60,724 nt of DNA from an uncultured Alphaproteobacteria bacterium (GCA_944392865.1 CALXYD010000004.1:1-60724); one strand, 5' to 3'; shown: positions 4,014 to 36,919, numbered from the stretch's first letter. The notes: generated from the sequence alone by a model not told the origin. Translations and numbers: made by a program.

Positions 4014-7000
4014 TTAGTATAACGGCGGTATTCCTTCCACTTCTTCCGATAATTCATCCTCGCTCGGTGGAACACCGGTTATTGAGCCATCGGCTGCCGG
4101 CGGAGGAAGCGCGCCTGTGTTATTTTGGCCTGTATTTCTCCGTTGATTATTATTTTGCGGTTCTTCGCTTATTAGCGGAGTTCCACCACCGCCACTGTTA
4201 TCTTGATTAGAAGTTCCTCGGTTACTCTGGCCTCCAAGAATAACTTTCCTGCTACCACCACCATTATTGCTCTCAACAGTTGATGTAGTGGTTGTTCCTG
4301 TTCCACCGCCAACGACTTCTTCTGTAACTAATCCGCCCTGTCCGGAGCTTGGAATATCCGTCGCAACGCCTCTTTCAATATCTTTGGTGCTTCTTAGCCA
4401 CAAATCTCGCATCGGATATATGATAATTCTGGTACCTGCCGGAATATACGTTACGGATTGAATTTGCGATTTGCTGTCAATAATCTGTTGCAGTATCTGA
4501 TCCATTTTATCCATAAACTGTTGACGCGCATCAGAAGCCGCTTGTTGTTTTGAATTTTCAACTTCTCCCGTGCTTTCTTCATCAACAGCCATCATATAGG
4601 TAATGGCTGAGCTTGCCAGAGTTCCGACAATCGGCAATGTATATTTTTTAACTAACTGTTCATCAACATAACCAAGCGCGCCGCCGCCCCGTCCTTGCGC
4701 ATCGCCAGTTTGTGATGTTCCGGCATCCAAAATAAAAGCTATGCCATCCGGACGGATAATTCTCGACCAGGCGATTTCAAGTTTCACGCCACCGCTGGTA
4801 CTATCAAACCGATCTTCACCGTCAATGTCTTGCAAACCGCCAATAATACGGCTTCCGGCAGGTATAATTACATTTCTCCCCGTATCACCGTATATATTCC
4901 GTTCAACAATCGCTGTAACCGGAGCAGAACCAAAGGAAATCAGCGAACGCGCCATTACGGCAGGAATCGGTTTATCCGCAGTAATCATATTGTCCATATT
5001 TACACGCAAAGTTGAAACGGCGCGGGGAATACCCCAATCATCCTGCCAGCCGGTATAAGAGGCAGCGTTAAAGCCCGGTGTAACAACTGCCGCGGCCATT
5101 GTTTGACGACGCTCATTTTGCAGCTGAGCCAAAATTGCAGCGCGTTGCGGATTATATCTGCCACCAGGTCCGATACCTCCGCCCGGTCCGACAAAGGTTG
5201 CTTCATCTGTATTATCATAAGGATTTATTGTTGTGTTCCTAACCACCGCATCAATCCACCTAGCCCTAGTATTGGCTCCTAGCGTATCCTGAACTTGAGG
5301 TTTTTGTAATTGCCCGACAGTATTTCCATCGTTATCAATAACTTCCCCGTTTTCATTTACACGACCGATAGTTTCCCCGTTATCGTCTACAACTGTATTA
5401 TCGCCCAGAACATCGCCGATAATGTTTCCGCCCGGCGTTACGGCTATGCCAAGAAATCCCCTATTTCTTCTCTGTTCAATCAACGCCTCATCTTCCGGCG
5501 TTTCCTCTGGCGCATCGGCCGCACTTTCAATCTCTTCGTTTTCATTTATCATTTCCGTGGCAGCCGGTTGGTCATCAGATGAGCTTTCTTCATTATTTTG
5601 GTTTTTATTATCGCCTGTTTTTTCCTCGTTTTCTTTTTCTCTATCTGATTCTGACTGTTCATCCTCATCTTCCGGCTCAGCAGGGCGTTGATAATATTGC
5701 AGGCGTTCCGCTTTGGCTATGATATTCCCGCCGGCATTTTTTATATCGCCGTTAGGTTGCAGCTGTCCGACCTCAATGTTTTTGACATCTAAAACAGATC
5801 CGTCCAGTTTAAGGTGGCCGATAATCTCATGCGCGGCATTTCTTATTTCATAATCCCGGGCGCCTCGTCCGATTAAATTTTGTTTTTTATCAACAACGAA
5901 TCCATTGTAGATTGTTCCTTTCATCTCGCCCATAATGCTATAAACACGTCCGTTTTTCGCAATATAGCCGATGGTTTTTCCATCGTTGTCATATACATAT
6001 AAGTCATACAAAGCAAAGCCGTTTTTACTTCCCTTTATAACAACTTCGCCATTATATTGGACGATACCCAAGATTTCGCCGGCATCCGAAACGACTCTTC
6101 CGTCCGGTTTAACCCGCCCGAGATACACGTTATTACTGTCAAAGGCTACCGTATATTTAAACGGGACGCCAACATTTTCTCCGTTTTTAGCAAGAATACT
6201 GCCGTCAATATCACGAACGGCAATTTGCACACCGGAATTATCAACAACGTTACCATAGAAATCCGTATAACCGATAATTTTATTATTAAATCCCATAATC
6301 GGCGTATATGATATTGTCTGGCCGACAATTTCTTTTTGAGGGTTGCGTACCAGACCATCGGCACCTACACACCCCATATTTTGATTAGAATAGTTTAGGA
6401 CATTTCCCAGCGGGCCAGATATACCGAGCATCTCTCCTTTTTTACCGCTAACTGCCTGAGGAACAACAATATGGCCGATTACATTTTCAGTTTCATTCAT
6501 TATCTGCCCATTAGTTAAGACCATCCCCAGGTATGCACCGGCGGATGTTCTGGCTTCACCAGAATCAGAAACGACGCCTAAAAACTTACATTCCGGCGAG
6601 ACTACGGCACCGAGAGGCGCGGCACCGCCGTATAGTGCACCCATATTGTCCAGAGCGTTGCCATTAGAACTTATTTTGCCGATATTTTCCGTTCCATCGA
6701 CAATTTTTCCATCCAAAAGATTATAGCCGAGATAATCGCCGTTAATACTTACGCTGACAGGGGAAGCACCTGCTCGTCCGTATATTTCCGTATTTTTTCC
6801 TGACAGCCCTACGGCGTTACCGTCCGGCAAAATTTTAGCGATTTTCTGATCCCGCATATTGACCACTTGATAAACCGGCGTAACGAATCCCAATGTTGCC
6901 CCTTCAAAATTGGTAACATACTTGTCTTCAATAACTTTTCCCAGCAGCTTATTATTTTTATCTAAGAACATACCGGATCCGGTTAACTTGGCAATTTCAT

Positions 7001-8387
7001 TTAAGGAAGAATTTTCCGTTTGTCCGTTTCCGGTGGTGTATGACAGCATATTCCCTTCGGCTGAAAATATATGCCCCAAGGGATAGTTTCTGCCATTTAA
7101 ATTTCCGGTTTCATCATAGACATAGCCATACGGCGATGTTTTATAAACTTTTCCATTAAACGGGAGTATGGAATTTATACCGCTAACTCCGATAAATTCA
7201 TTAGAGTTGTTAAAATTCAGACGCGCATCCATTATCCGTCCCAACTGGTTGCCATTGGTATCAAAAGCACTCTTTTGTACCATTTGCCCCAAATCAACCC
7301 CTTCCAATGATACAACCCGTCCGCCTACGGCTGCATTTGCTTTAAGCTCGCCTAAATAATCAAAAACCGGACCTTCGGCATTTATAACACCGACAACTTC
7401 GCCTTTTTCATTGACGACATTGCCGGAGGCTCCGATTTTTCCTACGATGTTCCTTCCGCGAGCAATCTCTCCTTTTGCCGTAATCCGGCCTAAGTATTTT
7501 CCTTCCAATGTATTGGCCGTAGCAGACAGACTTACGGTAAAACCGATAACCTTGCCATCTTTATTTATAACGCGTCCGCCATTAACGGCGCGGGCAATAG
7601 TCGCCCCTTTATCGGTAACTTCTCCGTTATAACTGACAACGCCAATATATTTTCCATCAAGATTAAAGGCATAGCCGCTCTCTGCCACCTGCCCGATGAT
7701 TTTTCCATCGGCAGCATAGACGAATCCGTTGGCGTGAATATTTCCGACTGTTTTTTTATTTACATCAATGACTTTTCCGTCCGGGGCAATACTGCCCAAG
7801 AATTTGCCGGTTGACGAAACAACGATTTTAGAAGTAATCAGTCTGCCTGCCAATGCGACTTTACGGTCAGTTCCAGCGGTAAAGACATAGCCGGAAGCGG
7901 TTACATATCCCGTATTCTCGCCGACTAAATTATAAAACCGTCCGTCACCGGATACTCTGCCGGTAATCTGCCCGGCATCGTCATAAACAAGCCCCGGAGA
8001 AACAACAGCGCCCAGAATATCATAGTTATCATTTACGACCAAGCCGTTCGGCAAAACTTTTCCTACCAACGTATCATTTACGGCCGTTACGGAACCGTCA
8101 TTGCTGACTTTACCCAAAATGCTGTTATTATAGGAAATCGCAACGCCCTGAGGCACAACGCCGCCAATGATATTTTTCTCATCGTTATAAACAAAGCCGT
8201 CTGCGGTTATATGGCCAATTAATTCATTGTCAAAATTGATAACCGTGCCGTCGGGAATAACCTTTCCGATTAAATCGCCGTTAAAATTAAGCGCGCTCAT
8301 ATCGGCGGCGATTGCTCTGGCGGCAATCCCCATCAAAACGATTAAGCTTGTGATAAATCTGCTTAATTTTAACTTGTTAATGTGCAA
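4014..8387 (-). CDS. virB10: Giant VirB10/TrbI-domain protein with ~900-aa N-terminal beta-hairpin repeat region
   Basis: C-terminal TrbI motifs (IPAVMARSL, VERNIYGDTGRNVIIPAGSRIIG, IAWSRIIRPDG, DAQGRGG..GYVD, IPAGTRIIIYPMRDL). N-terminal signal-like peptide, GxVxxxxGxxIG repeats and an acidic linker. TTG start with GGAGG RBS. Confidence 0.9.
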   Translation of the reverse strand: MHINKLKLSRFITSLIVLMGIAARAIAADMSALNFNGDLIGKVIPDGTVINFDNELIGHITADGFVYNDEKNIIGGVVPQGVAISYNNSILGKVSNDGSVTAVNDTLVGKVLPNGLVVNDNYDILGAVVSPGLVYDDAGQITGRVSGDGRFYNLVGENTGYVTASGYVFTAGTDRKVALAGRLITSKIVVSSTGKFLGSIAPDGKVIDVNKKTVGNIHANGFVYAADGKIIGQVAESGYAFNLDGKYIGVVSYNGEVTDKGATIARAVNGGRVINKDGKVIGFTVSLSATANTLEGKYLGRITAKGEIARGRNIVGKIGASGNVVNEKGEVVGVINAEGPVFDYLGELKANAAVGGRVVSLEGVDLGQMVQKSAFDTNGNQLGRIMDARLNFNNSNEFIGVSGINSILPFNGKVYKTSPYGYVYDETGNLNGRNYPLGHIFSAEGNMLSYTTGNGQTENSSLNEIAKLTGSGMFLDKNNKLLGKVIEDKYVTNFEGATLGFVTPVYQVVNMRDQKIAKILPDGNAVGLSGKNTEIYGRAGASPVSVSINGDYLGYNLLDGKIVDGTENIGKISSNGNALDNMGALYGGAAPLGAVVSPECKFLGVVSDSGEARTSAGAYLGMVLTNGQIMNETENVIGHIVVPQAVSGKKGEMLGISGPLGNVLNYSNQNMGCVGADGLVRNPQKEIVGQTISYTPIMGFNNKIIGYTDFYGNVVDNSGVQIAVRDIDGSILAKNGENVGVPFKYTVAFDSNNVYLGRVKPDGRVVSDAGEILGIVQYNGEVVIKGSKNGFALYDLYVYDNDGKTIGYIAKNGRVYSIMGEMKGTIYNGFVVDKKQNLIGRGARDYEIRNAAHEIIGHLKLDGSVLDVKNIEVGQLQPNGDIKNAGGNIIAKAERLQYYQRPAEPEDEDEQSESDREKENEEKTGDNKNQNNEESSSDDQPAATEMINENEEIESAADAPEETPEDEALIEQRRNRGFLGIAVTPGGNIIGDVLGDNTVVDDNGETIGRVNENGEVIDNDGNTVGQLQKPQVQDTLGANTRARWIDAVVRNTTINPYDNTDEATFVGPGGGIGPGGRYNPQRAAILAQLQNERRQTMAAAVVTPGFNAASYTGWQDDWGIPRAVSTLRVNMDNMITADKPIPAVMARSLISFGSAPVTAIVERNIYGDTGRNVIIPAGSRIIGGLQDIDGEDRFDSTSGGVKLEIAWSRIIRPDGIAFILDAGTSQTGDAQGRGGGALGYVDEQLVKKYTLPIVGTLASSAITYMMAVDEESTGEVENSKQQAASDARQQFMDKMDQILQQIIDSKSQIQSVTYIPAGTRIIIYPMRDLWLRSTKDIERGVATDIPSSGQGGLVTEEVVGGGTGTTTTSTVESNNGGGSRKVILGGQSNRGTSNQDNSGGGGTPLISEEPQNNNQRRNTGQNNTGALPPPAADGSITGVPPSEDELSEEVEGIPPLY

Positions 8388-8388
8388 A

Positions 8389-11300
8389 TCAGTTCCTCCG
8401 ATTTTGAGCGACTTCGTCTAACACATATCCAGCCACCTGGTTTTTACCGTTCACATACGAACCGTTACTTTTCAGATAGCCTATCCGGCCGTTAGTCAGG
8501 CTAAGGACACGGCCGTCAGGAGCCAAGCGCCCAAAATATTTCCCGTCATTTCCCAGTATATTAGCACCTATTTTATAGGTATGTCCCATAATTTTTCCAT
8601 TGTTATCTACAACTAAATTAGAAGAAATAACTTTACCAATAACGGAATGCTCAAAGTTCAGGGCTTTTCCTTCAGCATTTATATAACCGATGACTTTATC
8701 TTCATCGCTAATGATGATATCTCCTTCAATGATTTCGCCTATCAACACACCTTTATTATTGACGGCTTGCCCTGTGCTCAAAATTCGGCCAATCGGCTGG
8801 TTGTCGGTGGATATAATGCTACCATCCGGTGCAACCTGCCCAATGACGTGTCCGGAATAATTCAAGATAACACCTCTTTTTAAGACGCTGTAATTTTTAT
8901 TAGATGCGCCTCCCGGCAAAACCGTCGTCTCTATTTTATCATCAATTCCGATAATATCGCCCAGAGCATTGAGATACCCTTTTACATTTCCCTGCACGTC
9001 AATAACAATATTTTCCTCAATGACTTCGCCGACCAATTGCTTATTTTTATTCAATACATGGCCATCAGCGCCGACATAACCGCTCAAATTGCCGTCGACA
9101 TCAATAACCGTTCCTTTTTTGCTGACATAACCTAAATACGAACCATCATAGCCAATTCCTACCCCCGTGCGGACTATTCCCCCTTTGTAGTTTCCTTTTT
9201 CATCAAACATCCGCCCTTTGGCATCAATTTGCCCGAGCTCCGTTCCTAAAACGTCTATCACTTTGCCATTATCATTAACCAAGCCGATATAATTTCCGTT
9301 CATATCAACGACATTTCCTTTGGGTAGCAGCCGACCGGTTTTGCGTGCATAAAATCCGCTTCCGTCATAGACGAATTTATCTACGGCAATTCCCTGCTGA
9401 TTATAGACATATCCGTCCGCAAACATGTGCCCAATAACCTTGCCATTGGCGTCTACGATAATGTTCTTTTCCGGCAGCAGAACACCTTTGATTTCCTTTT
9501 TGGGATTTACCAACAAGCTACCCAACAATATTTTTGTATTCGGAATTACCGCCGTGCTGTCATAACCAAAAGGCGACAGGTTATTAACAAACTCTCCCTC
9601 CAGCGTATAGGCCTGAGTTTTATCAACAACTTCACCAATGATAAAGCCGTCTTTATTCAGGATTTCCCCTTCAAAATTAGCACATCCGACGGCTGTATTG
9701 CCAGATTTGACAATACCGTCATTACCGACAATGCCCATCATCTCTCCGTTATAGTATAGTGCATACGCCGGTTCATGAACTTTTCCGACAACTTTGCCGT
9801 CCGGGTTCAGAACACTGCCATCCGGATTGACGCACCCCACATATCCTCCGTCATTGTTGCGAACATATCCGTCTTGTCCGGCTTTGCCGATGATGTTACA
9901 CTTTTCATCTCTTACCCAGCCGATTTTAGCAATATCACCAGCATAGTCGCCGTTGCTGTCAACGATACTGCGGTCAAAGAGCATACGATATTCGGTATTT
10001 TGACCGTCTTTCTTTACTCTGGCATCTCTATCCACATAACCTAATTGTTTACAGCCCCACCCGACGGCAAGTCCGCCGATAACCGTTTTTCCGATAATAT
10101 TATCGCCTTCAGCGGTGCGTATTAAAGATGACGGCAGCACCTTTCCGATAACTTCGTTTTTGTTGTTTACCACTTCCCCTCGGTTATTTATGGCTCCCAG
10201 GCTATATCCGTTCGGCGACATCGGTATCATATCTTTCTTTATGACAGCGCCGATTTTTATACCTCGTGAAGTGATAACATTGCCTTCTTCGTCCAGATAA
10301 CCAATTACTAAACCATCCGCATTATAAACTTTTCCATCAGCCCCGACATAACCGATAACATTGCCGTTTTCGTCAACAGCAAGGTTGGCATATCCGCCGA
10401 CAGTTCCGACCACCCGGCCATTTTCATCTATCGTAAATTCCGTATAATCCCCGATGCGTCCGATAATATTGCCGTTTGCGTCTTTTATGGTTCCGTCTTC
10501 CTGCAGTTTGCCGATAACCTTGCCATTTAAATCATAGGCGATACCATTTTCATCGACATAACCAATCACATTTCCATTTTCATCCAGAATTGCCCGGCGG
10601 CGGACAACTTGCAAATTGCCATCGCCATCTTCGGCAAGACGTCCGATTACCTCGCCATCTGTTCCGTAAACAGTGCCGTCAGCCGCAACGAATCCTATTG
10701 TTTTTCCATCGTTACCGATAACCCGACCCTTGTCGTCTACATAGCCGATAATATTTCCGTTTTCATCTACGACAACTTTTGCCATATCTCCGGCCTTGCC
10801 GATGATATTGCCGTCTTTATCGTGTATCGTGCCATCTTCCCCGAGATAACCGATTAAATTCCCGTTGAAATCCCTGACCGTGCCATCGTCATCTATGTAG
10901 CCGATAACATTACCGTTTTCATCCAGCGCCAACCTCTTTTTTATGTCGGCTTTGCCCAAAACTTCTCCGGTCAAACCAACGATATTGCCATTCTCATCAA
11001 CAAAACCCAAAAGTTCGCCGTTCTCTTTATAAACATTTCCGTCTTCGCCGATATAGCCGATAACATTGCCATTTTCATCTACCGCAAGTTCAGCCATTTT
11101 TCCCACTTTGCCGATGACACGCCCATATTGGTCGGTTATTGTTCCGTCCGGATTGGCTTTACCGATGATATTGCCGTTAAAGTCCCGCACATTTCCGTCT
11201 TCATCAACATAGCCGATAACGTTACCGTCTTTGTCGTATGCCAGCCGGCCGACTTTTCCGGCCGTTCCGATTATCTCTCCCGTGTTGTTCAGAATATTGC

Positions 11301-14300
11301 CGTTTTCATCAACATAGCCTATCGTATTGCCGTTAAAATCTTTAACAGAGCCGTCTTCGTCTATGTAACCGATAATATTGCCATCTTTATCATAAGCCAG
11401 ATTTTTTGCGTCACCGACACTTCCGATTATCTTGCCATCGACTCCGACAATATTTCCATCCTTGTCAACAACGCCTATGACATTGCCATTCTCGTCAATT
11501 ACCCGGCCATTCTCATCAACATAGCCAATAATATTGCCGTCTTTATCATACGCAAGTTTATGCTCCAATCCGGCTTTACCGATAATATTGCCGTCTTTAT
11601 CAACAATATTTCCGTCTTTATCAAGTTTACCGATAATATTTCCCTTAAAATCTTTAACCGTTCCATCCGGCTCAATATACCCGATGACTTTACCATTCTT
11701 ATCCAGAGCCAGTCGCCGCCCTTCGCCAATTTTACCGATAATTTCTCCATTAGCGCCGATGACATTACCATCTTTGTCGACATAGCCGACAACTTTTCCA
11801 TCCGGACCAATAACATTACCGTTTTCATCAACATAGCCGATAACGTTACCGTTTTTATCATAAGCAAGCTTTACGCTTTTACAAGCGGTGCAGATTATTT
11901 CGCCGACGGCAATAACTTCGCCTTTTTCGTTAACATAGCCAATGAGTTTGTTTTCTTTATCATAGGCAAAATTATTTGCCTTCATAAAGCCGATATGCTC
12001 GTTGCCATTGTTACGCAGCGTTTTATTATCCTTATCCAACCGCCCGATAATATTATGTTTGGCGGCTAAAACATTGCCTTTTGCGTCAACAAGTCCGATG
12101 ACTTTGTTTTCATTTCCGCGAACATAGTTTTTATCATCAACATAACCGATTATCATTTTGTCGGCGTTACTGACGACATTTAACATCACACCGGTTTTGC
12201 CAGCCAAGCGGCCGCGGGAATCGATAATATCCGTCCCTTTTCTCTGTCCTATAACCTTTCCAGAAAAGTCTTTAACAACATTTTTATCGTCAACATAACC
12301 TATTATTCCCTTTCCTTGCGTGCCATAGGCAACTCTTTTGCGAATACACGTCCTGCCGATTTTTTTGTCGCCGGCTTTGATTATATTGCCATTTTTATCA
12401 ACAAAGCCGATTATATTTCCTTTTTCATCTTTTACCCGCCCGTGTTCGTCAATATAACCGATAACATTGCCATTTTTATCCATCGCGACTCGATTGAAAT
12501 CCCCGGCTTTACCAATAATCCGCCCTTTGGTATCAACAATAGTCCCGTCTGCGGTCATTTTACCGATTAAGTTGCCTTTGAAGTCTTTAACCGTGCCATC
12601 CGGCGTCACATATCCTATAACATTGCCGTCTTTGTCATACGCCAAGCGCTTATAATTGCCGGCGCTCCCCAGAACTTCTCCGCTAGAGGCTATGATATTG
12701 CCGTTTTTATCAACCACGCCGATGATTTTGCCATCACAGTCAATAACTCTCTTTTTATCATCTATATATCCGATAAACACACCTTTGGAATTAAAGGCTA
12801 TTTCCTTTGTCTCTCCGACTTTGCCGATGACTTTGCCGCTTTTATCTACAACGTTGCCATTTTTATCGGCTGTACCCAAAGTTACGCCGCCGCACCCCTT
12901 AACAGTACCGTCAGAATCGACGTATCCGATAAATTTACCATTCAAATCATACGCCAACGGACGCGATGTTCCTGCTTTGCCGATTACTTTTCCGTTTGTA
13001 CCGATAATTTTCCCGTCGGCATCAACAAACCCTAACAGCTTTCCGTCCTTGCCGATAACGCGCCCATTTTCATCAACAATACCGATAACATTGCCGTTTT
13101 TATCATACGCCAATGTTGCATAATCGCCGGCTTTGCCTATTTTACGGCCGTTTTTATCAATAATTTCGCCTTTATCGTTGACCTTACCGATGATATTGCC
13201 CTCAAAATCAACAACGTTTCCGTTGTCATCTATGTAACCTATCGGTTTACCGTCTTTTCCTAAAGCAATCCGCTTACGGGCAACGCCGCTCTTGTCCTGT
13301 CCGGCTTCAATTATGTTGCCGTTTTCATCTACGGTTCCTATCAGCTTGCCATTTTTATCAAATACCCGCCCCTGCTCGTCTATGTAGCCGATTACTTTGC
13401 CATTTTTATCTAATGCCAAGCGACGGGTGGCGCCAGCTTTGCCAATTATTTTTCCGTTTTTATCAATGATATTTCCGTCTTTATCAACTTTGCCGATAAT
13501 GTTTCCGTCAAAATCCCTGACTGTTCCGTCCTTGTCAATATATCCGATAACATTGCCGTCTTTGTCCAAAGCCAAACGCCGACTGGCGCCGACTTTGCCG
13601 ATAACTTTCGGTTTATTTCCGTCTTTGGAAAACTTTACAACTTTACCATTTTCATCAATGTAACCGATGGCTTTGCCGTCTTTATCATAAACAATTTTCC
13701 GACTCTCGCCGTTTGCACCGATTTTTTCTTCTTCAACGCGGTAAACATTGCCGTTTTCATCAACATAGCCAACAATATTTCCGTCTTTATCCACCACGCT
13801 GTTATCCGGCATAACAACCCCAAGAACATTGCCGTTTTCATCAACAACGATATTTCCGGAAGACGTTACTTTTCCGATAACATTGCCGTTTTCATCCACG
13901 ACTTCGCCGTTTTCATTCAACCGGCCAATTACTTTTTTGGGGTCATTTATATCAACAACCGTTCCGTCAGGTAAAACGCGGCCAATAATTTTTCCGTTTT
14001 CATCATATACGAATCCGGCTTCTACGGCTTTGCCGATAACTTCGCCTTTGCTATTGACGATTGTCCCGTCCGGTAATGCTTTTCCGATAACTTCCCCTTG
14101 CAGGTCAACAACCGTTCCGTCTGTTTTGACATATCCGATAATGTTTCCGTCTTTATCATAGGCTAATTTCATATTTTGGGCAACACCGATGATATTTCCG
14201 TCTGCGTCAACAATCAGGCCGTCTTCATTAACTCTACCGATAATGTTGCCGTCTTTATCATGCACATTTCCGGCTTCATCAATATAGCCGATAATTTCTC

Positions 14301-14982
14301 CGTTCGGCCCGATAGCTAACCGATGCGCACCGACACCGCCGCTACCAATGGCGCACCCCGACGAAGCATCACATATCTGTTGAGAATCATCGGGAAATAC
14401 CGCACTACCTTTAATACTGACTTCTTCTGATTTTGCGCTTGATTCATCTAATCTTGTTTCATACCAGATAATTTTGAAATTGTTTTGCACATTGCCGGGG
14501 AAATGCGGCGTCCAGGAGATCAGCACATTACACGTTTCATCACCGCGCAAATCGCGATTGCGGCACTTATCCCTGAACTCAAAACCGTCTTCCGTTTCTT
14601 CTACCAATTCAACCCGGACAATATGGATACTTTCGCTGCCATCCGTACCGATAGTCAAAACACTCTGATTTTGCGTGTCTACGCCCAAAATAAACCGATT
14701 CATATTTATTTGCGAAGGCGTTACTTTTATGGGTTTTGCTCTTTCGGTAAAACCGGTTTCTTCCGTTTCTATAATTACAGGCTCTTCGGCAATAGACACA
14801 TCCGGAAGAATATCTTGATTTTCCACAAAATCCGGGGTGTTTTCTTCCGGGTTATACTGCTTAACTTCGGTGGAGATAATCAATAACCCAAACAGGAAGA
14901 AAAGCCCGGAAATAATTCCGATTATCAGAATTATCTTTCGGGTTTTTCTTTCATATTCTTCAAAACGGGTATTTTCGTTCAT
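8389..14982 (-). CDS. ~2197-aa membrane-anchored protein: N-terminal TM, Ig-like (ASH/choice-of-anchor-D-like) domain, ~1950 aa of beta-hairpin repeats
   Basis: Start re-placed at ATG 14982, giving an ATGA overlap with the virB9 stop. TM KIILIIGIISGLFFLFGLLII; CRNRDLRGDETCNVLISWTPHFPG Ig-like signature; very many DxxGxxIGxV units. Lies between virB9 and virB10. Confidence 0.85.
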   Translation of the reverse strand: MNENTRFEEYERKTRKIILIIGIISGLFFLFGLLIISTEVKQYNPEENTPDFVENQDILPDVSIAEEPVIIETEETGFTERAKPIKVTPSQINMNRFILGVDTQNQSVLTIGTDGSESIHIVRVELVEETEDGFEFRDKCRNRDLRGDETCNVLISWTPHFPGNVQNNFKIIWYETRLDESSAKSEEVSIKGSAVFPDDSQQICDASSGCAIGSGGVGAHRLAIGPNGEIIGYIDEAGNVHDKDGNIIGRVNEDGLIVDADGNIIGVAQNMKLAYDKDGNIIGYVKTDGTVVDLQGEVIGKALPDGTIVNSKGEVIGKAVEAGFVYDENGKIIGRVLPDGTVVDINDPKKVIGRLNENGEVVDENGNVIGKVTSSGNIVVDENGNVLGVVMPDNSVVDKDGNIVGYVDENGNVYRVEEEKIGANGESRKIVYDKDGKAIGYIDENGKVVKFSKDGNKPKVIGKVGASRRLALDKDGNVIGYIDKDGTVRDFDGNIIGKVDKDGNIIDKNGKIIGKAGATRRLALDKNGKVIGYIDEQGRVFDKNGKLIGTVDENGNIIEAGQDKSGVARKRIALGKDGKPIGYIDDNGNVVDFEGNIIGKVNDKGEIIDKNGRKIGKAGDYATLAYDKNGNVIGIVDENGRVIGKDGKLLGFVDADGKIIGTNGKVIGKAGTSRPLAYDLNGKFIGYVDSDGTVKGCGGVTLGTADKNGNVVDKSGKVIGKVGETKEIAFNSKGVFIGYIDDKKRVIDCDGKIIGVVDKNGNIIASSGEVLGSAGNYKRLAYDKDGNVIGYVTPDGTVKDFKGNLIGKMTADGTIVDTKGRIIGKAGDFNRVAMDKNGNVIGYIDEHGRVKDEKGNIIGFVDKNGNIIKAGDKKIGRTCIRKRVAYGTQGKGIIGYVDDKNVVKDFSGKVIGQRKGTDIIDSRGRLAGKTGVMLNVVSNADKMIIGYVDDKNYVRGNENKVIGLVDAKGNVLAAKHNIIGRLDKDNKTLRNNGNEHIGFMKANNFAYDKENKLIGYVNEKGEVIAVGEIICTACKSVKLAYDKNGNVIGYVDENGNVIGPDGKVVGYVDKDGNVIGANGEIIGKIGEGRRLALDKNGKVIGYIEPDGTVKDFKGNIIGKLDKDGNIVDKDGNIIGKAGLEHKLAYDKDGNIIGYVDENGRVIDENGNVIGVVDKDGNIVGVDGKIIGSVGDAKNLAYDKDGNIIGYIDEDGSVKDFNGNTIGYVDENGNILNNTGEIIGTAGKVGRLAYDKDGNVIGYVDEDGNVRDFNGNIIGKANPDGTITDQYGRVIGKVGKMAELAVDENGNVIGYIGEDGNVYKENGELLGFVDENGNIVGLTGEVLGKADIKKRLALDENGNVIGYIDDDGTVRDFNGNLIGYLGEDGTIHDKDGNIIGKAGDMAKVVVDENGNIIGYVDDKGRVIGNDGKTIGFVAADGTVYGTDGEVIGRLAEDGDGNLQVVRRRAILDENGNVIGYVDENGIAYDLNGKVIGKLQEDGTIKDANGNIIGRIGDYTEFTIDENGRVVGTVGGYANLAVDENGNVIGYVGADGKVYNADGLVIGYLDEEGNVITSRGIKIGAVIKKDMIPMSPNGYSLGAINNRGEVVNNKNEVIGKVLPSSLIRTAEGDNIIGKTVIGGLAVGWGCKQLGYVDRDARVKKDGQNTEYRMLFDRSIVDSNGDYAGDIAKIGWVRDEKCNIIGKAGQDGYVRNNDGGYVGCVNPDGSVLNPDGKVVGKVHEPAYALYYNGEMMGIVGNDGIVKSGNTAVGCANFEGEILNKDGFIIGEVVDKTQAYTLEGEFVNNLSPFGYDSTAVIPNTKILLGSLLVNPKKEIKGVLLPEKNIIVDANGKVIGHMFADGYVYNQQGIAVDKFVYDGSGFYARKTGRLLPKGNVVDMNGNYIGLVNDNGKVIDVLGTELGQIDAKGRMFDEKGNYKGGIVRTGVGIGYDGSYLGYVSKKGTVIDVDGNLSGYVGADGHVLNKNKQLVGEVIEENIVIDVQGNVKGYLNALGDIIGIDDKIETTVLPGGASNKNYSVLKRGVILNYSGHVIGQVAPDGSIISTDNQPIGRILSTGQAVNNKGVLIGEIIEGDIIISDEDKVIGYINAEGKALNFEHSVIGKVISSNLVVDNNGKIMGHTYKIGANILGNDGKYFGRLAPDGRVLSLTNGRIGYLKSNGSYVNGKNQVAGYVLDEVAQNRRN
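10450..13580 (-). repeat. Degenerate intragenic tandem repeat, 156-bp (52-aa) unit made of three ~17-aa subunits
   Basis: Consecutive units such as KLAYDKDGNIIGYVDENGRVIDENGNVIGVVDKDGNIVGVDGKIIGSVGDAK are 52 aa long. CTTTATCATA occurs at 11385 and 11541, 156 bp apart. Boundaries approximate. Confidence 0.85.
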
Positions 14983-17051
14983 TGCACTCTGACCACGCTG
15001 CAAAAGATTCCGTTACGTCCTAACTGGCTGCAGATATTATCTCCTTCCTCCAACGATTTGACCGGCCCTACGCGAAGGTGAAAGACCTCTTTTCCTTGTC
15101 CGTCGGCGGGCGTATCTACGGAATAGAACGGTTGGTATCTGCCAATTGTAGCCGAGTAATTTTTGGAAATATCGTTCCATAATTTTTCCAGATTATTGAC
15201 ATCCTCGTCCGTTCCCAATTCAATAGATATATTGCTGTCATTTACACTTTCAAAAACTTTCCCGTTACGAAATTCTTTCAGAAGTTCTTCCATTTCGGCA
15301 GTTAAGACCGTATTACCACCCTCAATATCTTCTTTAGGCGTAATCAATATCGGGCTGGAGTTATTTACAGAACCACCCATGGTTGGCGTATTGCTATTCG
15401 GCACGTTCGCAACATTATTTGTTGTTGCGGCGTGAGGCTGTTGAGTGTTGCCGCTTTTATTACCACTACCGGCAGATATGCCGTTTGCCCCACTCCCGGC
15501 TGAAGTTTCCGTTTGCGTATTTGTCGGAGCGGAAGGAATATTTATTCCCGGCGCCGGAGCAACAACCGGTGCAACTTTAGGCATAGAGTTAAGCATTGTT
15601 TCATCATTAAGGCTTGCGGAAGCAGCCGATTGCCCCATTGTCTTTGCGCCATTGCCTACACTATTTCCAACATTATTTCCATTAGCGCCTGCGTTATTGT
15701 ATCCGCCGTTGACAACATTGTTTCCTCCCTGGTTGTCGTTATTTTGCCTGAAATTTCCATTTCTCATGCCTGAATTATTTGCCGGCGGCACGGCACGTTG
15801 GCCGCTGATTATATCTTCATAACTTAATCCGCTATCTTCCGTTGCCGATCTGTTTGATGAACCGGCAAACGTATTATTGCCAAAGAAACCGACATTTGAG
15901 GATGAGCCTTTGCCTGATGCTTGTCCGCTATGACCATTTGTTCCGCCGACACCATAAACATCTTCATATTCGCCATCCGAACCATCTCCGGGTTGCGAGG
16001 CATAGGCATTTTGTAAATCCCATTCGTTTGTTTTGGCATAAATCGTATTTTCCAACCCATCCGAATCGGCGCGACGCAATTTTAAGCAGACAATTCTCTT
16101 TCCGCTACGCAACACCATATCCCCCATACCTTCAACAATTATCAGACGGTTATTGGGGCCGGCGGTGCGGAAACCTACCGGTGTTTCGGAACGTTCAACA
16201 ATCAGGGTTACAATCGGGCGCTGAATAGCCGTCAAAGCTTTATCGCCCAAGTCTATATAGGTAAATATGTTATCACGCCAAACACGTTCCGGGGCTATGA
16301 TTATATCGTCCGGATTTGGGACATACACTTCTATATCAAAACGGAATTTTGTCGGGTCAACAGGGATTTTTTCAATCCAGTCCTCTTTTTGAAGATTGCG
16401 CGTAAAGGTAGCATCTTCGCTACTTCCATCTGCGCTGTAATCGTTTGCGTTAAGATGACCGCCTCCGGCTCCTCCGCCCATGACGTCGGAAATTCCACCG
16501 CGTTTTTTTACAACCTCTATATCAATTATTGCATTAGTAATTCTGTCGGTATTAACAGTTTCGCTTTGAACATAGAACACATATTTGTTCCCGGAGCGAC
16601 CGAAGACAATCATATTGGTATCAACGCCGACAAACTGCGACGAATCAGGATAAACCAACAGGCTGGACGGCCCTTGTATTTCCGCGTTAAATGATTGGCC
16701 ATCACCGATATATACATTTTCAATTACTTCCCAACTCGGAAAATTGATGAGCGTATACATTCCTTCACGCACTCTTACCGGCAGAACAAGATCAGGCGTC
16801 CAATAATATTTGGTATATCCCGGCCGTGTCTGCCCTTCACCCATGTGTTGCAAAGGGTCTTTCCATGCGCTTTGCATCATTCCCAACGACCCCACGCCGC
16901 CTAAATAATTCAAATTTGTTGCCGCATAATTCCCCTGGCTCTGGTCAGCATTTTGATCCAGATTATCCTTAGTAACTTGCGCCAGAGCCACGTTTGCAAC
17001 CAGAACAGAAGCCAGAACCGTCAGAAAAAAGATATTCGCTATTTTTACCAT
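14979..17051 (-). CDS. virB9: VirB9/TrbG outer-membrane core protein fused to a C-terminal SPOR domain
   Basis: Signal peptide; VirB9 N-domain (VRVREGMYTLINFP..E.I..VYIGD, DTNMIVFG); C-domain (APERVWRDNIFTYID, MVLRSGKRIVCLK); Asn/Gly-rich linker; SPOR-like tail (IELGT...FHLRVGPVKSLEEGDNICSQLGRNGIFCSVV). Confidence 0.88.
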   Translation of the reverse strand: MVKIANIFFLTVLASVLVANVALAQVTKDNLDQNADQSQGNYAATNLNYLGGVGSLGMMQSAWKDPLQHMGEGQTRPGYTKYYWTPDLVLPVRVREGMYTLINFPSWEVIENVYIGDGQSFNAEIQGPSSLLVYPDSSQFVGVDTNMIVFGRSGNKYVFYVQSETVNTDRITNAIIDIEVVKKRGGISDVMGGGAGGGHLNANDYSADGSSEDATFTRNLQKEDWIEKIPVDPTKFRFDIEVYVPNPDDIIIAPERVWRDNIFTYIDLGDKALTAIQRPIVTLIVERSETPVGFRTAGPNNRLIIVEGMGDMVLRSGKRIVCLKLRRADSDGLENTIYAKTNEWDLQNAYASQPGDGSDGEYEDVYGVGGTNGHSGQASGKGSSSNVGFFGNNTFAGSSNRSATEDSGLSYEDIISGQRAVPPANNSGMRNGNFRQNNDNQGGNNVVNGGYNNAGANGNNVGNSVGNGAKTMGQSAASASLNDETMLNSMPKVAPVVAPAPGINIPSAPTNTQTETSAGSGANGISAGSGNKSGNTQQPHAATTNNVANVPNSNTPTMGGSVNNSSPILITPKEDIEGGNTVLTAEMEELLKEFRNGKVFESVNDSNISIELGTDEDVNNLEKLWNDISKNYSATIGRYQPFYSVDTPADGQGKEVFHLRVGPVKSLEEGDNICSQLGRNGIFCSVVRVQ

Positions 17052-18971: not shown

Positions 18972-21900
18972 TTAGTAAACCGGACAGTAGGCGACGGCCT
19001 GGCTTTGATTGTCCATAGACATCAAGCCCTCTTCTTCAGCTGTTCTTACTGCCGTTTTGTTGATTTCAGCCTTTTCGGCGGCTTCCGCTGCGGAAGCACC
19101 TGTCGCATCCGGCTGAATGGTGGCTAATTCATCCGGATCGCCTGCTCCATCCTCTCCATCTACCGGTGCGCCAAGGGCAGCAAAGTAGTTTTCAATTTTA
19201 TTCAGGCGTTCCTGAACGCGATCTTTATCGGTCTCGTTAATTTCAAGGTTATTATACCCGGCGTGTTCGCCAAGTTCATCGCTATAACCCTGTTTTGCTT
19301 TACGAATCGCTTCATTTTTCAGTTCGTCAAGTTTACAGAAAATCTGGTCATAGTATGAACCGTCTTCGTTTTTCATCCCGCAGCTAACACTATAGACATC
19401 ATCTGATGAATCTTTTGCCAAACCGCCATTTTCCATAATCAGCTGGGCACATTCAGCAGCTTTTGCATTGACGCATTCGCTATCGGATGTATCTTCGCAA
19501 AGTTCTTCGCCGCTGACACTCTCGCCAAGATTATGCATTTGCTGGCATAAGTTCTCCAGAGCGTCGATAACATCTTCTTTGTTGTTATCCAGGGTCTTTT
19601 CGGCATTGCGCTCTGCATTCACCGCCTCCAGGAACGAACCGATAACATTGCGCTTAAACGTTGCTAAGTCGGCGAGTTGGCGTTTTATGCTGTTCTCCTG
19701 ATTTTCATCGTTCAGCAGATAGTCATAGATGTTACGCAACATAGGACGATATTCCAAGTTACCATTTAGGAATTGTCCGAGTTCGCTGTATTTCTCATAC
19801 ATCGGTTCATCCGTGCTGCCCAAACCGTCTTGCAAGGCCTTGGAATCGTCATCATCAAGTGGATTATGGTCTGCCAGCAACTGGCGCACACCACTTTTGT
19901 GATTAGCGACTTCCTGACAGGTCTGCACCGTTGCGCCGGACGGTATGGAGCTACGCTGTTTAAAGCTCATATCGCCAACACCATCGCCACCACCAACATC
20001 AATCACTTTGTTAGAGCTGATGTTTACAATCTTGCCTTTGTTATCCTGTTTACCAAGTTTGCACGGATATACGCCGGCTCGCCCTATAATCGCGCGGTAG
20101 TGGGATTCTTCCGCTCCCGGGATATCGGCATTGTTGATGTAATCTTTCAGCTTTTCCCTACCGTAAGAGCGCTCAACAAACGTCTGCTGATACAGCCCAT
20201 CCTTGCGGAAGTTCGGTGTTGCTAACAAGTAACGCCAAGTTTCCGGCAGATACTCAATCGCTTCTGCAATCTCTATCGTTGTGTGCTTGTATTTTTTATC
20301 TACCAGCGTTGATGGAGACGGCTTGTTATCCTTCTTCGGCACATCGTCATAATCCATTGCGCTAAAGTAGAATACTTCTCTTAGCGGAGCCAGATTCAGC
20401 AACGGTTTGCGCGGGGCTTTGTAATCGCGGCCGTTGTTGCTGTCTACATCTTCGCTAATTGACGGTATCAGTTCTTCCTTCTGCTTACCAAAGGTCGGGA
20501 CGGTTATTGTATACAAACCGCGTGCCGGCAGGCCTACATAATAGTTATCGTCGGTGACTATATCTGCCGGAATACCAAAACTTTCTTCAAGTTTGATACC
20601 TGCCAAATCCAGTTTTGCCTGGTTTTCCGCCTGTTTCAGCTTTTCAATCAAGGCGTAATGCTCGGCTGTTACGGATTGTCCGCCGTTTGCCACTCCATCA
20701 TCGGCATAATTTTCGTGGATGTAGATTTCTTCGGACGGTTCGGTTCCTTCTTCGCCGGTTACACCCCATTTTTCCATAACGGCGGTAATCTCATCGGCGG
20801 CCGAATCGACTTCTTTCTTAATCGTCGTATCCGCGTCTTTGATATATTTATCCTTGATGAGCTCCATGGCGTCTTCTTTGACAATGTCTTTAAGTTTCAA
20901 GGCTATTGAGGCCGGCGTGTAAACGCCATCCGGAATACCCTCAGCCGCAAGAGCGCCGTTGGCAATGACAAATTTGTCTACTACGCCATTGCTTTCCAAC
21001 ATTGCCGGATACTGCCCCCATTTGCCGCCTGAGAACCAGCGTTCTTCAATACTATCCAGGATAATACCCTTCAAATCGCTTTGAACCCGAGCGTCGTCAT
21101 TAACGCCATCGTGGTCGTTTTTATCCACGGTACTGTATAACACGCGCGCCATTGTCCAGGACAAATTATCATACTTATAGTCATTTGTCTGATATTTATC
21201 TTTACAGTCTAAAACGCCGAGTCTCCGCTCTTTAGTGCACCACGGTCTGCGTGTGTTCTCCATACGCGCCGGGTCGCTAACATCGTTTTGGACTTCAAGT
21301 TTCTTTTCAAACAGCTCGTTTTCGGCCTCTATTTTTTCCTGCCATGCCGTTGCCTCTTTAATATAGGTATCGGCAAACGTTTGGGCATACTCGCGAATTT
21401 CTTCGCTTTTGGCATCTATTTTTTCCTGTTGAACATCAAGAAAACTCTGTGCATCATCCATCTCCTCTTGGGCTTCGGTGATGTCGTCTTCTGTATCCAT
21501 TACGTTCTCGAAAATCTTATCCACGTCCAAGCCTTCATACAATTCTTTTTGCATTTCATCTTTACTTTTTCCGGTCGCAACATTGCGCCAACCGTTGCAT
21601 TCGCTGATATTTTCCGGTGCATTCGCACAGAGGAAGGCCAATTCCTCTTTCATCGCCGGAATTATACCGATTATTTCCGCAAGGGTCGGATTTTTTATTT
21701 TTTCCAAATCTTCTCCCGCTCCTCTCAGCAAAGAATCCAAATCGTTTTGCAGGCTTTCCGGTTTCGGGTTGCGATCTTTTAATCTGGCTTCCAACGCCGG
21801 AACACGGACATTCTCAAGGTTATCCAAGTCTTTGACTAAACCTGAGATGTGTTCAATGGAGCGTTGGCGTTCCTGAACAAATTTATTTTTATCTTCCGTT

Positions 21901-24533: not shown

Positions 24534-25881
24534 TGGTATCCCCTCCCTCTAACCATTGATACTCTTCTGCATTTACTTCAAAACTTTCGGTAGCCGTTAC
24601 CGCCTCGTTTGCCGTTCCGGCCTTTTTGATTAAGTCATCCACATATTCTTTGGTGAGAATATATTTATCTAAGTTAAATTCTAAATAATTGCCGTTCGGC
24701 GTCTTCTCCATTTCCGCATCCAACAGAGCCCTTGCCGCCATATATTGCAGACGGGCGCTTTGCAATTTGGCATACATCAAAAGGGCTCGCATATTTTCAA
24801 TTCTCGTCGCGGAATACGAAGATATTGCCTCCAACTCATTAGCCGCTTTGGGCGTGTTCTCAAAATATTCATCAATTATGGTTGTGCGAACCGGTATCTC
24901 ACGCCTTAAACTTGCCGTAACCTGCAAGAGGTGAGCTGCCGTATTGACCAAAGTATATTTACGCTCACGCGTTGCCGCATCTATTTTGGTCTGATGTTCT
25001 ATCCGGCTTTTTTCATCAGCTGCACTGCTTAATTTCTCCGGATCATAGAAATAACGCTCCATAAAGTCTTTGTAATCTTCTTCGGTCGGACTGAACTTGT
25101 CTACAATATCGTCTTGATTTTGCATACTCCACTCCAGCTCTTCCGCACCTTCGGTTTTATCAACGAAAGTTTCATCTTCTTCATCGGCATCAAGTTCCTC
25201 AATCCGTTCCTGAAAAGAAACATATTTCGGGTCAGCCTCTGTTCCGACTTTGGCTTTTTCCGTCTGCAAGACAGTTAATTGCGCCGCTAAAATTTTTTGC
25301 AAGCCTTCCAGCTCCTTGCAAGCCGTTTCCAAAGCTTTGTATTCCATTTCGGCAGTTATATACTCGTCATACGCCTGTTCTGATTGGCCGGGAATATGTT
25401 TTACCTGTTCATAAGCCTGTTTTAACTGCGCCGCTTTTGCTTTTGTTTCGTTTTTCTCTCTTTCCTTTTCCGCTTTCTTTTCGGTCGTTTCTTTTATGCT
25501 GGCCTGCGTCATTTCAATTTTTACGGTGTAGTACTGATTTTGCGCCGTAACATACTGTTCCTGCTCAGCCTCCAGCTTTTCTTTATTTTTCTGTTTTGTC
25601 CCTTTTGTAAGCTGGCTCATTTTCTTTTTAATGACAGGCATTGCAAAGGTATTGAACTTATCAACGCCCAAATCAAATAACATCTTCTTGTTTATTCCCT
25701 GCGCGCTTAACTGCTTGGCCTGAGAAACGTGCTGAGATATGTTCGTGGTTGCATCGCTAACTTTTCCAACCCAATCGCTGATTTTTGCAGCCAATGTCGC
25801 CGCATCGATAATCAAAGCATACGATGGTGTCGCAGAACCTAACATAAAACAGAAAGCCCATATTGCTGTTGTCTTTTTCAT
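24526..25881 (-). CDS. Secreted coiled-coil protein, VirB5/TrbJ-like
   Basis: Signal peptide ending SYA, then LIIDAATLA and all-helical/coiled-coil composition; ATGA overlap with the upstream gene. Confidence 0.6.
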   Translation of the reverse strand: MKKTTAIWAFCFMLGSATPSYALIIDAATLAAKISDWVGKVSDATTNISQHVSQAKQLSAQGINKKMLFDLGVDKFNTFAMPVIKKKMSQLTKGTKQKNKEKLEAEQEQYVTAQNQYYTVKIEMTQASIKETTEKKAEKEREKNETKAKAAQLKQAYEQVKHIPGQSEQAYDEYITAEMEYKALETACKELEGLQKILAAQLTVLQTEKAKVGTEADPKYVSFQERIEELDADEEDETFVDKTEGAEELEWSMQNQDDIVDKFSPTEEDYKDFMERYFYDPEKLSSAADEKSRIEHQTKIDAATRERKYTLVNTAAHLLQVTASLRREIPVRTTIIDEYFENTPKAANELEAISSYSATRIENMRALLMYAKLQSARLQYMAARALLDAEMEKTPNGNYLEFNLDKYILTKEYVDDLIKKAGTANEAVTATESFEVNAEEYQWLEGGDTND

Positions 25882-26588
25882 TCTCCGCTCTCCTCTGCTT
25901 CTATGGTTTGGGTTGACATTTCTGCTGCGGCCGCTCCGCTAACCATGTAGGCGCGTAACTCCAAAATACGATTTAACCGTTGTTGCGTGGCTATATCAAC
26001 GACATTTTGGGCGCTTAATATCTCGTCTATATTATTATTTTTGAAATTTTGCTGGTATAAAGAACCGTCTTCCATCAGAATACTTTGGCGTGTTGCCACC
26101 GCTTTGGCGAATAACAACGCCGTATCATCGGATAGTATCGCATTCAGCTGGCGCCGATTTTCATTCAGATTTTCCAAATCTTTCCCCCGTCCGCGATGGT
26201 ATATGTATGTATCCTGAATAGTTTTTATCAATGAAACATCTAATTTTTCGTTTAAGTCTCCGTCAGAAAGCTCTTCAGCCCCCGGCATTACGCGTATCTC
26301 GTCCATTGTTTCAACATAAAATTGTTTGGCATCTTTTCCCCATGTTTCCAAGGCTTTCGTATCGCAACTCTTGGGATTTTTATAACAACTTTTAGCCAGT
26401 TCAAAACCTTGACGAGCTCTTTTTTCAATTTCTCTTGCTTTTTTTGCATACTCTTGGATTTTATTTTTATAGTCTTCTGCCTGTTCAAGCACAGACTCTA
26501 TCTTTGCCATAATATCAAATATGGCATAAGCTTCCCGCGTATACATGAACAGGGATAATACCAAAGCTATACATAATTTTTTTCTCAT
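25878..26588 (-). CDS. Secreted helical protein, VirB5/TrbJ-like (canonical size)
   Basis: 236 aa, signal ending AYA, then IFD and a coiled coil; C-terminal SAQNVVDIATQQRLNRILELRA resembles the TrbJ/VirB5 tail; TGATG coupling to the upstream gene. Confidence 0.6.
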   Translation of the reverse strand: MRKKLCIALVLSLFMYTREAYAIFDIMAKIESVLEQAEDYKNKIQEYAKKAREIEKRARQGFELAKSCYKNPKSCDTKALETWGKDAKQFYVETMDEIRVMPGAEELSDGDLNEKLDVSLIKTIQDTYIYHRGRGKDLENLNENRRQLNAILSDDTALLFAKAVATRQSILMEDGSLYQQNFKNNNIDEILSAQNVVDIATQQRLNRILELRAYMVSGAAAAEMSTQTIEAEESGE

Positions 26589-28801: not shown

Positions 28802-28874
28802 AATGCCCTCCCTTAACCTTACGGACTAATAATGTTTTATACACAAATTATTGACATACTCTTAATTTATCCAG

Positions 28875-30893: not shown

Positions 30894-30927
30894 AATACCC
30901 CTCCCAGTCAATAATATATTTTGGTGG

Positions 30928-30956
30928 ATTATAGCACGTATTTCCTTTTTTGTCAA
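30928..30956 (-). promoter_or_regulatory. Perfect-consensus sigma70 promoter upstream of the VirB5-like gene array
   Basis: Minus strand TTGACA (30956-30951), 17-nt spacer, TATAAT (30933-30928), preceded by the extended -10 TG. Confidence 0.85.
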
Positions 30957-30961
30957 CAAAA

Positions 30962-35354: not shown

Positions 35355-35402
35355 TATTTTTAAATGCGGCTGATTATTTGCAGATTAGGAAGCGAATTAC
35401 CT

Positions 35403-36904: not shown

Positions 36905-36919
36905 ACAGTAGGTTACATT

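Follow-up and report, generated by a model that had tools for sequence, protein, structure and literature searches.

A giant VirB10 probably divided between two adjacent genes in an uncultured gut alphaproteobacterium

We investigated an open reading frame (ORF) at 4014..8387 on the minus strand of a 60,724-nucleotide stretch of DNA, hereafter the window, from an uncultured Alphaproteobacteria bacterium (GCA_944392865.1 CALXYD010000004.1:1-60724). The ORF has a TTG start, encodes 1457 amino acids (aa) and yields a member of the VirB10 family of type IV secretion system (T4SS) subunits. We consider it probable that this product represents the part of a giant VirB10 nearest the outer membrane, and that the gene was fissioned into two adjacent, translationally coupled genes, of which the upstream one encodes the inner-membrane half (Table 1). 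An earlier description of the same DNA, made from the sequence alone (the sequence-only reading), had proposed an enlarged VirB10 that was possibly detached from the inner membrane. Canonical bitopic VirB10 proteins (Agrobacterium VirB10, pKM101 TraF, R388 TrwE) share with this ORF the TrbI barrel and the position between VirB9 and VirB11, and the two genes together restore the canonical order of tail, transmembrane (TM) helix, periplasmic spacer and barrel. In contrast to canonical VirB10, this order is spread over two polypeptides, the chain with the barrel carries a predicted signal peptide and not a TM anchor, and the spacer comprises approximately 2900 aa of β-hairpins plus an ASH-like domain. 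The spacer of canonical VirB10 is a short proline-rich stretch.

The family assignment is based on the C-terminal barrel, which matched TrbI (PF03743) over profile positions 2-188 of 188 with 99.3 bits against a cut-off of 35 (E 3.2e-28), at the place where the sequence-only reading had put it (about 4400-5000). Sequences in the PDB that matched the barrel were ComB10 (2bhv, 1.7e-16), TrwE (7o3j, 1.2e-5), Xanthomonas VirB10 (6gyb) and, weakly, CagY (8cb2, 4.5e-4). For the helical antenna, which in VirB10 barrels forms the outer-membrane pore, the observation is at sequence level: the ComB10 alignment extends through aa ~1256-1330. The scores for the NCBIfam equivalogs T4SS_VirB10 (NF038091, 81.8 bits against 220) and T4SS_ComB10 (NF038092, 112 against 300) lie below their cut-offs, and we assign the product to the family and to no equivalog. 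Its chain is ~3.6 times as long as the solved VirB10s among the PDB matches (TrwE, 395 aa; Xanthomonas VirB10, 406 aa), in agreement with the three- to fourfold enlargement, and the acidic linker noted at the same time has an Asp+Glu content of 32% (aa 899-1005) and is disordered in an AlphaFold2 model.

The cytoplasmic tail and TM helix of a single-chain bitopic VirB10 were found on the product of the upstream gene, which ends 1 nt before the ORF start. This protein begins with a basic/acidic cytoplasmic tail of 23 aa and a TM helix at aa 24-42 with a Kyte-Doolittle (KD) hydropathy of 2.99, followed by a disordered spacer and a β-sandwich, for which Foldseek retrieved the ASH domain of CEP192 (6fvi, E 1e-6, TM-score on the target (TMt) 0.58) and a PapD-like domain of HYDIN (2e6j, TMt 0.72, root-mean-square deviation (rmsd) 3.0). 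The remainder matches Bflower_2 (495 bits in 23 stretches) and Bflower (329 bits), with repeats that reach the end of the protein. Both products are homologous to different parts of one-chain giant VirB10s. For a 2222-aa protein of another genome (G300), aa 1-235 of the upstream half align with aa 11-240 (E 2.7e-19), and aa 1000-1338 of the ORF (residues 1-339 of a query of aa 1000-1457) with aa 1690-2087 (E 2e-56). The ASH-like domain searched alone by BLASTP matched aa 75-185 of the one-chain protein P0146 (E 4e-13) and the 579-aa protein P0186 (E 8e-4), and the tail consensus TxSExYxKKTNRIIL is common to upstream halves and one-chain forms. Gene order agrees with this: the G300 operon reads VirB8, VirB8, VirB9 with a SPOR domain, a single TM/Bflower/TrbI gene and VirB11, and the window reads VirB8, VirB8, VirB9, upstream half, ORF and VirB11, a T4SS operon setting typical of VirB10 with two genes in the one slot. 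The ORF product would depart from the one-chain bitopic topology of VirB10 because it is half of a fission. The proposed detachment from the inner membrane therefore fits this polypeptide, which has no anchor of its own, and not the machine, to which the upstream gene supplies a tail and TM helix; detachment of the machine does not follow, because the upstream gene is homologous to the N-terminal module of the one-chain giants.

The N-terminus of the ORF product has the pattern of a Sec signal peptide for signal peptidase I (SPase I). It contains three basic residues (K5, K7, R10), a hydrophobic core of 13 residues, A-I-A at positions -3 to -1 and no lipobox Cys, in keeping with the basic n-region, core of 7-15 residues and small -3/-1 residues of such peptides. 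A mature start of the form [DE][IM][ST]A[LIV][DNS][FYL], placed one residue past the predicted cut, was identified in 119 of 120 homologues. The presequence is at least 15 aa long in 109 of these 119, the 10 shorter ones (<15 aa) being probably short start calls; across the 109 its called length has a median of 28 aa, position -1 is A in 104, S in 4 and G in 1, and position -3 is A in 80, V in 19, T in 6, S in 3 and L in 1. The presequence itself is free to vary, and conservation starts exactly at the cut. KD maxima range from 1.26 to 2.37 in secreted halves and from 2.88 to 3.28 in anchored halves. These data point to a cleavable signal peptide and not a stop-transfer anchor, as the sequence-only reading had suggested, and we consider it quite improbable that the segment is an uncleaved signal anchor, which would make the secreted half a type II protein tethered to the inner membrane. 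Such an anchor could be formed by FITSLIVLMGIAARAIAA, which extends over 18 residues if its Arg is tolerated, and 19-residue KD windows reach 1.82 in the ORF, against 2.99 for the TM helix of the upstream gene; however, the purely hydrophobic core has just 13 residues, small residues occupy -3 and -1 in 108-109 of the 109 homologues directly before the highly conserved mature start while the presequence varies, and there is no conserved cytoplasmic tail, unlike in the upstream half. Separately, short barrel relatives of 500-630 aa (P0199, P0203, P0211, P0214, P0218, P0221) have lipobox-like starts (..LAAC, ..VSGC, ..VAAC), and VirB10-like barrels with a lipoprotein signal in place of the TM anchor may therefore exist.

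The junction between the two genes is conserved. In the window it reads ...AAT CGG AGG AAC TGA T TTG..., with the Shine-Dalgarno site of the ORF inside the last codons of the upstream gene. GGAGGA was found in the last codons at 25 of 28 junctions, the other three having GGAGAA, GAGGAG or a site further downstream, and it is followed by the stop codon and then, mostly 1-4 nt on, by the start, which is TTG in most. The protein ends that meet here are conserved as well, as ...EVAxNRRN in the upstream product and [AQ][DE]I[ST]A[LI][DN]FNG at the mature start. Among 22 related loci from metagenome-assembled genomes (MAGs) of gut and rumen, the upstream gene has a TM N-terminus in 16 (KD at least 2.88), five are cut at an edge and one has no upstream DNA. 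Five more genomes, which belong to three further genera of this family, encode split forms of 1480+2325, 1397+2081, 1245+1886, 1140+1542 and 1148+1534 aa, and a genome of another family (G389) encodes one of 1563+1760 aa. We also observed that the R-R-N end of the anchored half (8392-8400, minus strand) is encoded by CGGAGGAAC, which doubles as the ribosome-binding site of the next gene; the motif may owe its conservation to the RNA signal and not to a role in the protein.

It is hardly credible that the split is an artefact or a decaying gene, be it misassembled, a pseudogene or translated as one chain through read-through or frameshifting. The two frames are parted by just one stop and one base, the ORFs of genus g19 are in frame with each other, and an open frame of 2689 aa was reported for one genome (G190). 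The same junction nevertheless recurs in 28 genomes with its own Shine-Dalgarno site, start codon and signal peptide, and contigs from three DNA runs of three studies, one of which may be the source of the window DNA, agree over 2 kb around the junction, without indels and with 8385-8399 unchanged. The distance from stop to start (1, 3 or more nt), and with it the frame relation, varies between genera, so that no single recoding rule fits and neither read-through nor a fixed frameshift can be the general explanation. We rejected G190 as a fused form, since its DNA contains ORFs of 1140 and 1542 aa parted by TAA, and a word-index search found no fused form longer than 2550 aa. One-chain forms of related families are shorter (1930-2406 aa) and emerged only from an exhaustive search. 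The barrel is moreover kept in 212 of the 219 high-quality genomes of the order.

The two halves are predicted to bind each other. We modelled a complex of the C-terminal 383 aa of the anchored half and the N-terminal 380 aa of the mature secreted half. Its three runs gave ipSAE values of 0.85, 0.85 and 0.84, and none of 3 controls exceeded 0.00. The mark used for ipSAE was passed by 58 of 80 solved complexes and 2 of 110 mismatched pairs in calibration, and is approximate here, where own alignments were used. The models contain 220-226 contacts with at least 90% contact agreement between runs and a partner predicted local distance difference test (pLDDT) score of 86-87, and their interface takes in residues 374-381 of the 383 from the anchored half and residues 1-4 of the mature secreted half. 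A fold search of the PDB by Foldseek retrieved no similar solved complex.

The main alternative, which we regard as unlikely, is that the secreted half works alone in the outer-membrane complex, uncoupled from an upstream protein that would be a separate, non-binding accessory, such as a scaffold in the periplasm or a protein that binds the cell wall or a membrane. It would account for a chain without its own anchor and for a division of the repeats that varies widely, from 2204+1457 aa here to the first four of the pairs listed above, as if the arrays evolved with some independence; it would also sit easily with a repeat for which the passages on the β-flower in PMC10584680 give no function. 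The upstream protein, however, shares homology with the N-terminal module of the one-chain VirB10s and fills the same operon slot, the junction is arranged for translational coupling, the protein ends that meet there are both conserved, and the complex model passes its controls.

We investigated the distribution of these architectures by an exhaustive search with the barrel, which returned 1797 proteins at E <= 1e-3, of which 150 were listed. The 151 rows classified comprise 13 giants with a signal peptide, 17 giants with a TM helix, 59 short forms whose N-terminus is hydrophobic and 62 fragments or others. Among the matches listed, the closest relatives by barrel are the signal-peptide forms and the next, at 36-54% identity, are the TM giants, which are single chains of 1498-2406 aa with the tail motif SSSEQYxKKSNR, a TM helix (KD 2.5-3.5), an ASH-like domain, β-flower repeats and TrbI. 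More distant are forms of 500-600 aa that have a TM helix, an ASH-like domain, a proline-rich stretch and the barrel, and are without repeats (e.g. P0186). The one-chain β-flower VirB10s (P0146, 2152 aa; P0162, 2363 aa; the G300 protein) share with the split form the barrel clade, tail motif, TM helix, ASH-like domain, repeats, terminal [LIM]F and operon slot, and differ in being single chains with no internal signal peptide; they are uncharacterised and known from genomes and metagenomes only. One-chain forms were identified in other families of the class (in a sample in which 33 of 401 genomes matched). The architecture is not rare: Bflower and TrbI are combined in all of the best 120 of 1056 matches, and the barrel occurs in 263 of 283 genomes of the order. 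All of these are uncharacterised MAG proteins, so that the novelty which the sequence-only reading made conditional on a lack of many characterised VirB10s of this kind is not contradicted.

To infer the direction of change, we computed a tree from 82 barrel segments (quick search in IQ-TREE, supported by the SH-like approximate likelihood ratio test, SH-aLRT, only). Its rows came from the 151 classified proteins and from ORFs of nine loci, and were restricted to those of 300 aa or more that contain an 'RPDG' anchor. Three rows (L035_70, L036_85, L037_94) are one-chain forms cut by the fetched locus and a fourth (L040_714) is an anchored half included by a chance RPDG, with a branch length of 9.3; these four were relabelled or set aside for the change counts and the constraint test, and all other rows were kept. 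All β-flower VirB10s group in a single clade (41 rows, SH-aLRT 96) beside P0186 and within the short TM forms, and the signal-peptide clade of the window (15 rows, support 99) is nested among the TM giants. After relabelling, 2 changes between split and one-chain forms are needed; holding the 16 split rows together gave a slightly better likelihood (p-AU 0.586 in the approximately unbiased test), and a single origin is not rejected. The simplest reading is that a single fission occurred in an already giant, bitopic ancestor.

Under such a fission, the upstream half would retain the ancestral VirB10 N-terminus, with its cytoplasmic tail, one TM helix and ASH/PapD-like domain, and continue into ~1970 aa of β-flower-type hairpins. 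The downstream half, translated from a TTG 1 nt past the upstream stop, would be exported by Sec through its cleavable signal peptide, and would carry ~870 aa of hairpins, a flexible acidic linker, three further hairpins and the TrbI barrel, located together with VirB9 beneath the outer membrane. Within the periplasm, hairpins at the C-terminal end of the anchored half would pack on those at the N-terminal end of the secreted half, giving a non-covalently rebuilt, envelope-spanning VirB10 in which ~2900 aa of β-hairpin array replace the usual short proline-rich spacer.

Domain order, homology, synteny and the conserved junction are direct observations, and signal-peptide cleavage, binding of the halves and any role of the array are inferences from them. 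Several points weigh against this reading. The controls of the complex model were unrelated proteins and not other β-hairpin arrays, so that a generic packing of such arrays by the model could give the same result, and the verdict is the model's own confidence. Cleavage of the signal peptide is deduced from sequence rules and conservation. The nodes that nest the split clade in the TM giants have a support of only 83-88, from a quick search without bootstraps, and the split point could not be mapped on the one-chain forms by BLAST, as the repeats cross-match everywhere. The β-flower label is a profile match, and the secondary structure of the model does not decide between closed flowers, which are shallow barrels of 8, 10 or 12 strands with 4-, 5- or 6-fold symmetry, and one continuous body. 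Finally, a contig of an RNA library (X17) spans 7400-8489 across the junction, with no cover at 8539-8739, and such a library may hold DNA, so that it is no proof of expression.

A 2025 review (PMC12857230), in its passages on this subunit, names VirB10 as the only known subunit that physically bridges the inner- and outer-membrane complexes, and describes it as relaying energy and signals to the gate in the outer membrane from the ATPases of the inner membrane. A fission conserved in nature raises the question whether covalent continuity of VirB10 is needed for this, and offers a system in which the two functions could be separated. More tentatively, and with somewhat less than even confidence, we propose that a whole order of gut Alphaproteobacteria has a chromosomal T4SS whose sole bridge between inner and outer membrane consists of two polypeptides with a non-covalent β-hairpin joint, possibly a regulated clutch between inner-membrane motor and outer-membrane channel; ~14 copies of a ~390-kDa pair would make a multi-megadalton, β-rich periplasmic sleeve unlike any solved T4SS, and the first functional setting for the β-flower. 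The repeat, so far a predicted fold without a function, would be placed in a defined machine and compartment. The T4SS is near-universal in this uncultured lineage of small genomes (~1.2-2.0 Mb), and is probably central to its life. We found no description of a split or β-flower VirB10 in the literature searched, which was judged mainly by titles and did not extend to supplements. Helicobacter pylori CagY and Legionella DotG are likewise much enlarged VirB10s of expanded T4SSs; both are single chains with other repeat types, and Pfam reported no CagY-type or pentapeptide repeat family in this ORF.

The repeats of both chains match the β-flower families of Pfam. In the ORF, Bflower_2 (PF21785) scored 185 bits against a cut-off of 38 in 7 stretches and Bflower (PF21784) 49.6 bits against 25, with a further match to DUF3659 (PF12396), and the BLOSUM autocorrelation of the sequence peaked at 17, 34 and 51 aa. 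The AlphaFold2 model of aa 28-1080, built with 46 homologues (mean pLDDT 85.5, predicted TM-score 0.78), has 100 strands that form 50 hairpins with a period of 17 residues over aa 30-892, most 10-residue blocks having a pLDDT of ~90 or above. The ~900 aa of repeats seen in the sequence-only reading thus correspond to a 17-aa hairpin array (aa 28-898) of a named Pfam family; the family name was new to our analysis, as were the three hairpins after the linker and the tail of 126 aa. The motif Gxx[IVL]G was observed 17 times, against 4.7 +/- 2.1 in 1000 shuffles (maximum 12), and [DNEQ]xxG 43 times, against 27.6 +/- 4.2 in 1000 shuffles (maximum 41). The arrays of the two proteins share 28% identity over 966 aa (E 3e-64), and 34 of the 35 Bflower_2 matches in the genome fall in these two genes.

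The ORF thus shares with the β-flower proteins (PF21784/PF21785/PF21786, Tubby C-terminal clan) profile scores above the Pfam cut-offs and an enriched [DNEQ]xxG turn motif. In the sections of Durairaj et al. 2023 (PMC10584680) that describe them, β-flower proteins are single domains of ~96 aa, some with lipoprotein signals, which are predicted from AlphaFold models only and have an unknown function. Unlike these, we identified 50 and ~115 hairpins in tandem within a T4SS subunit. The closest PDB folds of the array by Foldseek showed a local hairpin likeness to Rhs/teneurin repeats with a TM-score of ~0.1. We rejected an Rhs/YD cocoon, for which E values in this search went to 1e-10 at the same TM-score and an rmsd of ~29 Å, the likeness being local to the hairpins; similarly, Pfam matches of the upstream gene to RHS_repeat and YD were without any significant single stretch.

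Table 1. Coordinates of the two putative VirB10 halves, their parts and the flanking T4SS genes in the window
Feature	Coordinates	Strand	Basis or detail
Signal peptide, aa 1-27 (predicted)	8307..8387	-	n-region MHINKLKLSR, h-region FITSLIVLMGIAA, c-region RAIA; predicted cut before ADMS
Main β-hairpin array, aa 28-898, 50 hairpins of ~17 aa, Pfam β-flower type	5694..8306	-	PF21785, PF21784, PF12396; period 17; AlphaFold2
Acidic disordered linker, aa ~899-975 (~75 aa)	5463..5693	-	Asp+Glu content, low pLDDT
Second small array, three hairpins, aa ~976-1030	5298..5462	-	AlphaFold2 strands; weak Bflower_2 match 5283-5426
Pre-barrel region, aa 1031-1134, Gly/Pro-rich, conserved GPGGGIGPGGRYNPQRAA motif	4986..5297	-	G1040-P1053 columns (near-)invariant, alignment A1
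TrbI/VirB10 C-terminal barrel, aa 1135-1331	4395..4985	-	Pfam PF03743
G/S/T/N-rich low-complexity tail, aa 1332-1457 (126 aa), and stop	4014..4394	-	Sequence; end ALPPPAADG...IPPLY
Upstream gene, 2204 aa, probable inner-membrane half of split VirB10	8389..15003	-	Bflower_2, homology, synteny
Repeats of upstream half, aa 228-2204 (~1970 aa)	8392-14322	-	Pfam
Cytoplasmic tail (conserved NTRFEEYERKTRK) and TM helix, upstream half aa 1-45	14869..15003	-	KD; AlphaFold2 helix 13-45
ASH/PapD-like β-sandwich, upstream half aa 92-202	14398..14730	-	AlphaFold2 block pLDDT 77-91; Foldseek
Shine-Dalgarno GGAGGA, 6 nt 5' of TTG start, within last codons of upstream gene (R-R-N)	8394..8399	-	Junction DNA
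VirB9/CagX homologue, 690 aa	14979..17051	-	CagX 1.1e-12
VirB11-type ATPase, 326 aa	2961..3941	-	T2SSE 1.3e-25

Of the parts listed, the linker has a pLDDT below 50 at aa 906-963 (model residues 879-936), and the second array consists of six strands at model residues 951-1001 with a block pLDDT of 81-90. Proline makes up 2% of the array and 6% of the linker, and neither constitutes the proline-rich extended spacer of VirB10. The tail that follows the barrel (4017-4394, minus strand) closes with a conserved PPPxADG stretch and a terminal hydrophobic-aromatic pair, which is conserved in relatives as [LIM][FY]; it ends in ...PPLY here and in ...PQLF, ...IVLF, ...PELF and ...ARMF in split and one-chain relatives (P0146, P0162, L041, L042).

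The genome (1.58 Mb, 97.9% complete) contains a single VirB10 barrel and a T4SS dispersed over the chromosome. The C-terminus of VirB9 matches the peptidoglycan-binding SPOR domain just below the cut-off (E 5.9e-4, 20.6 bits against 21), and its G300 orthologue (L042 3162-4685) does so above it, with 23.8 bits. The locus further holds three VirB2-like genes, VirB3 and VirB4. Between VirB4 and VirB8, five consecutive genes (18972-30959, minus strand; 1853, 451, 236, 737 and 694 aa) have signal-peptide-like starts; none of the five matches a Pfam family above its cut-off, and two are coiled-coil-like. The position of VirB6 is taken by five tandem ORFs (446, 591, 431, 475 and 1029 aa) on another contig, C10 (G000; L029 5848-14820). 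For the 1029-aa ORF, TrbL scored 25.1 bits in the Pfam scan (cut-off 25.9) and 31.6 bits, over the cut-off, in the whole-genome search, in which the 446-aa ORF gave a sub-cut-off 16.4 bits. A weak Bflower_2 match lies just downstream of this VirB6-like cluster (C10:31832-32107). Besides C10, these dispersed T4SS genes involve C5:6818-8407, and VirD4 is on a third contig. No relaxase was found in this genome with PF03432 or PF08751, a weak hint against conjugation.

The dispersed chromosomal T4SS genes, five tandem VirB6-like, two VirB8 and several VirB2-like genes resemble the rvh T4SS of Rickettsiales as generally described. In contrast to it, one VirB9 and one VirB4 were seen here, and we know of no split or β-flower RvhB10. 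The window DNA occurs mostly in metagenome runs of chicken gut, and record titles and run labels place the lineage in chicken, ruminant and other guts.

We additionally identified a type IVb-pilus-like locus beside the T4SS (35364-46018, plus strand), which encodes a TcpQ-domain protein, a secretin, a PilO-like protein, a T2SSE ATPase, a T2SSF platform protein and a weak bundlin-like pilin, and is followed on the other strand by a second T2SSE-type ATPase (46021-46971, minus strand). Further downstream are a tyrosine recombinase that is XerC/D-like by its domains (50573-51487, minus strand) and an AddA/AddB-type helicase-nuclease pair (53042-59327, plus strand), which look like ordinary housekeeping genes.

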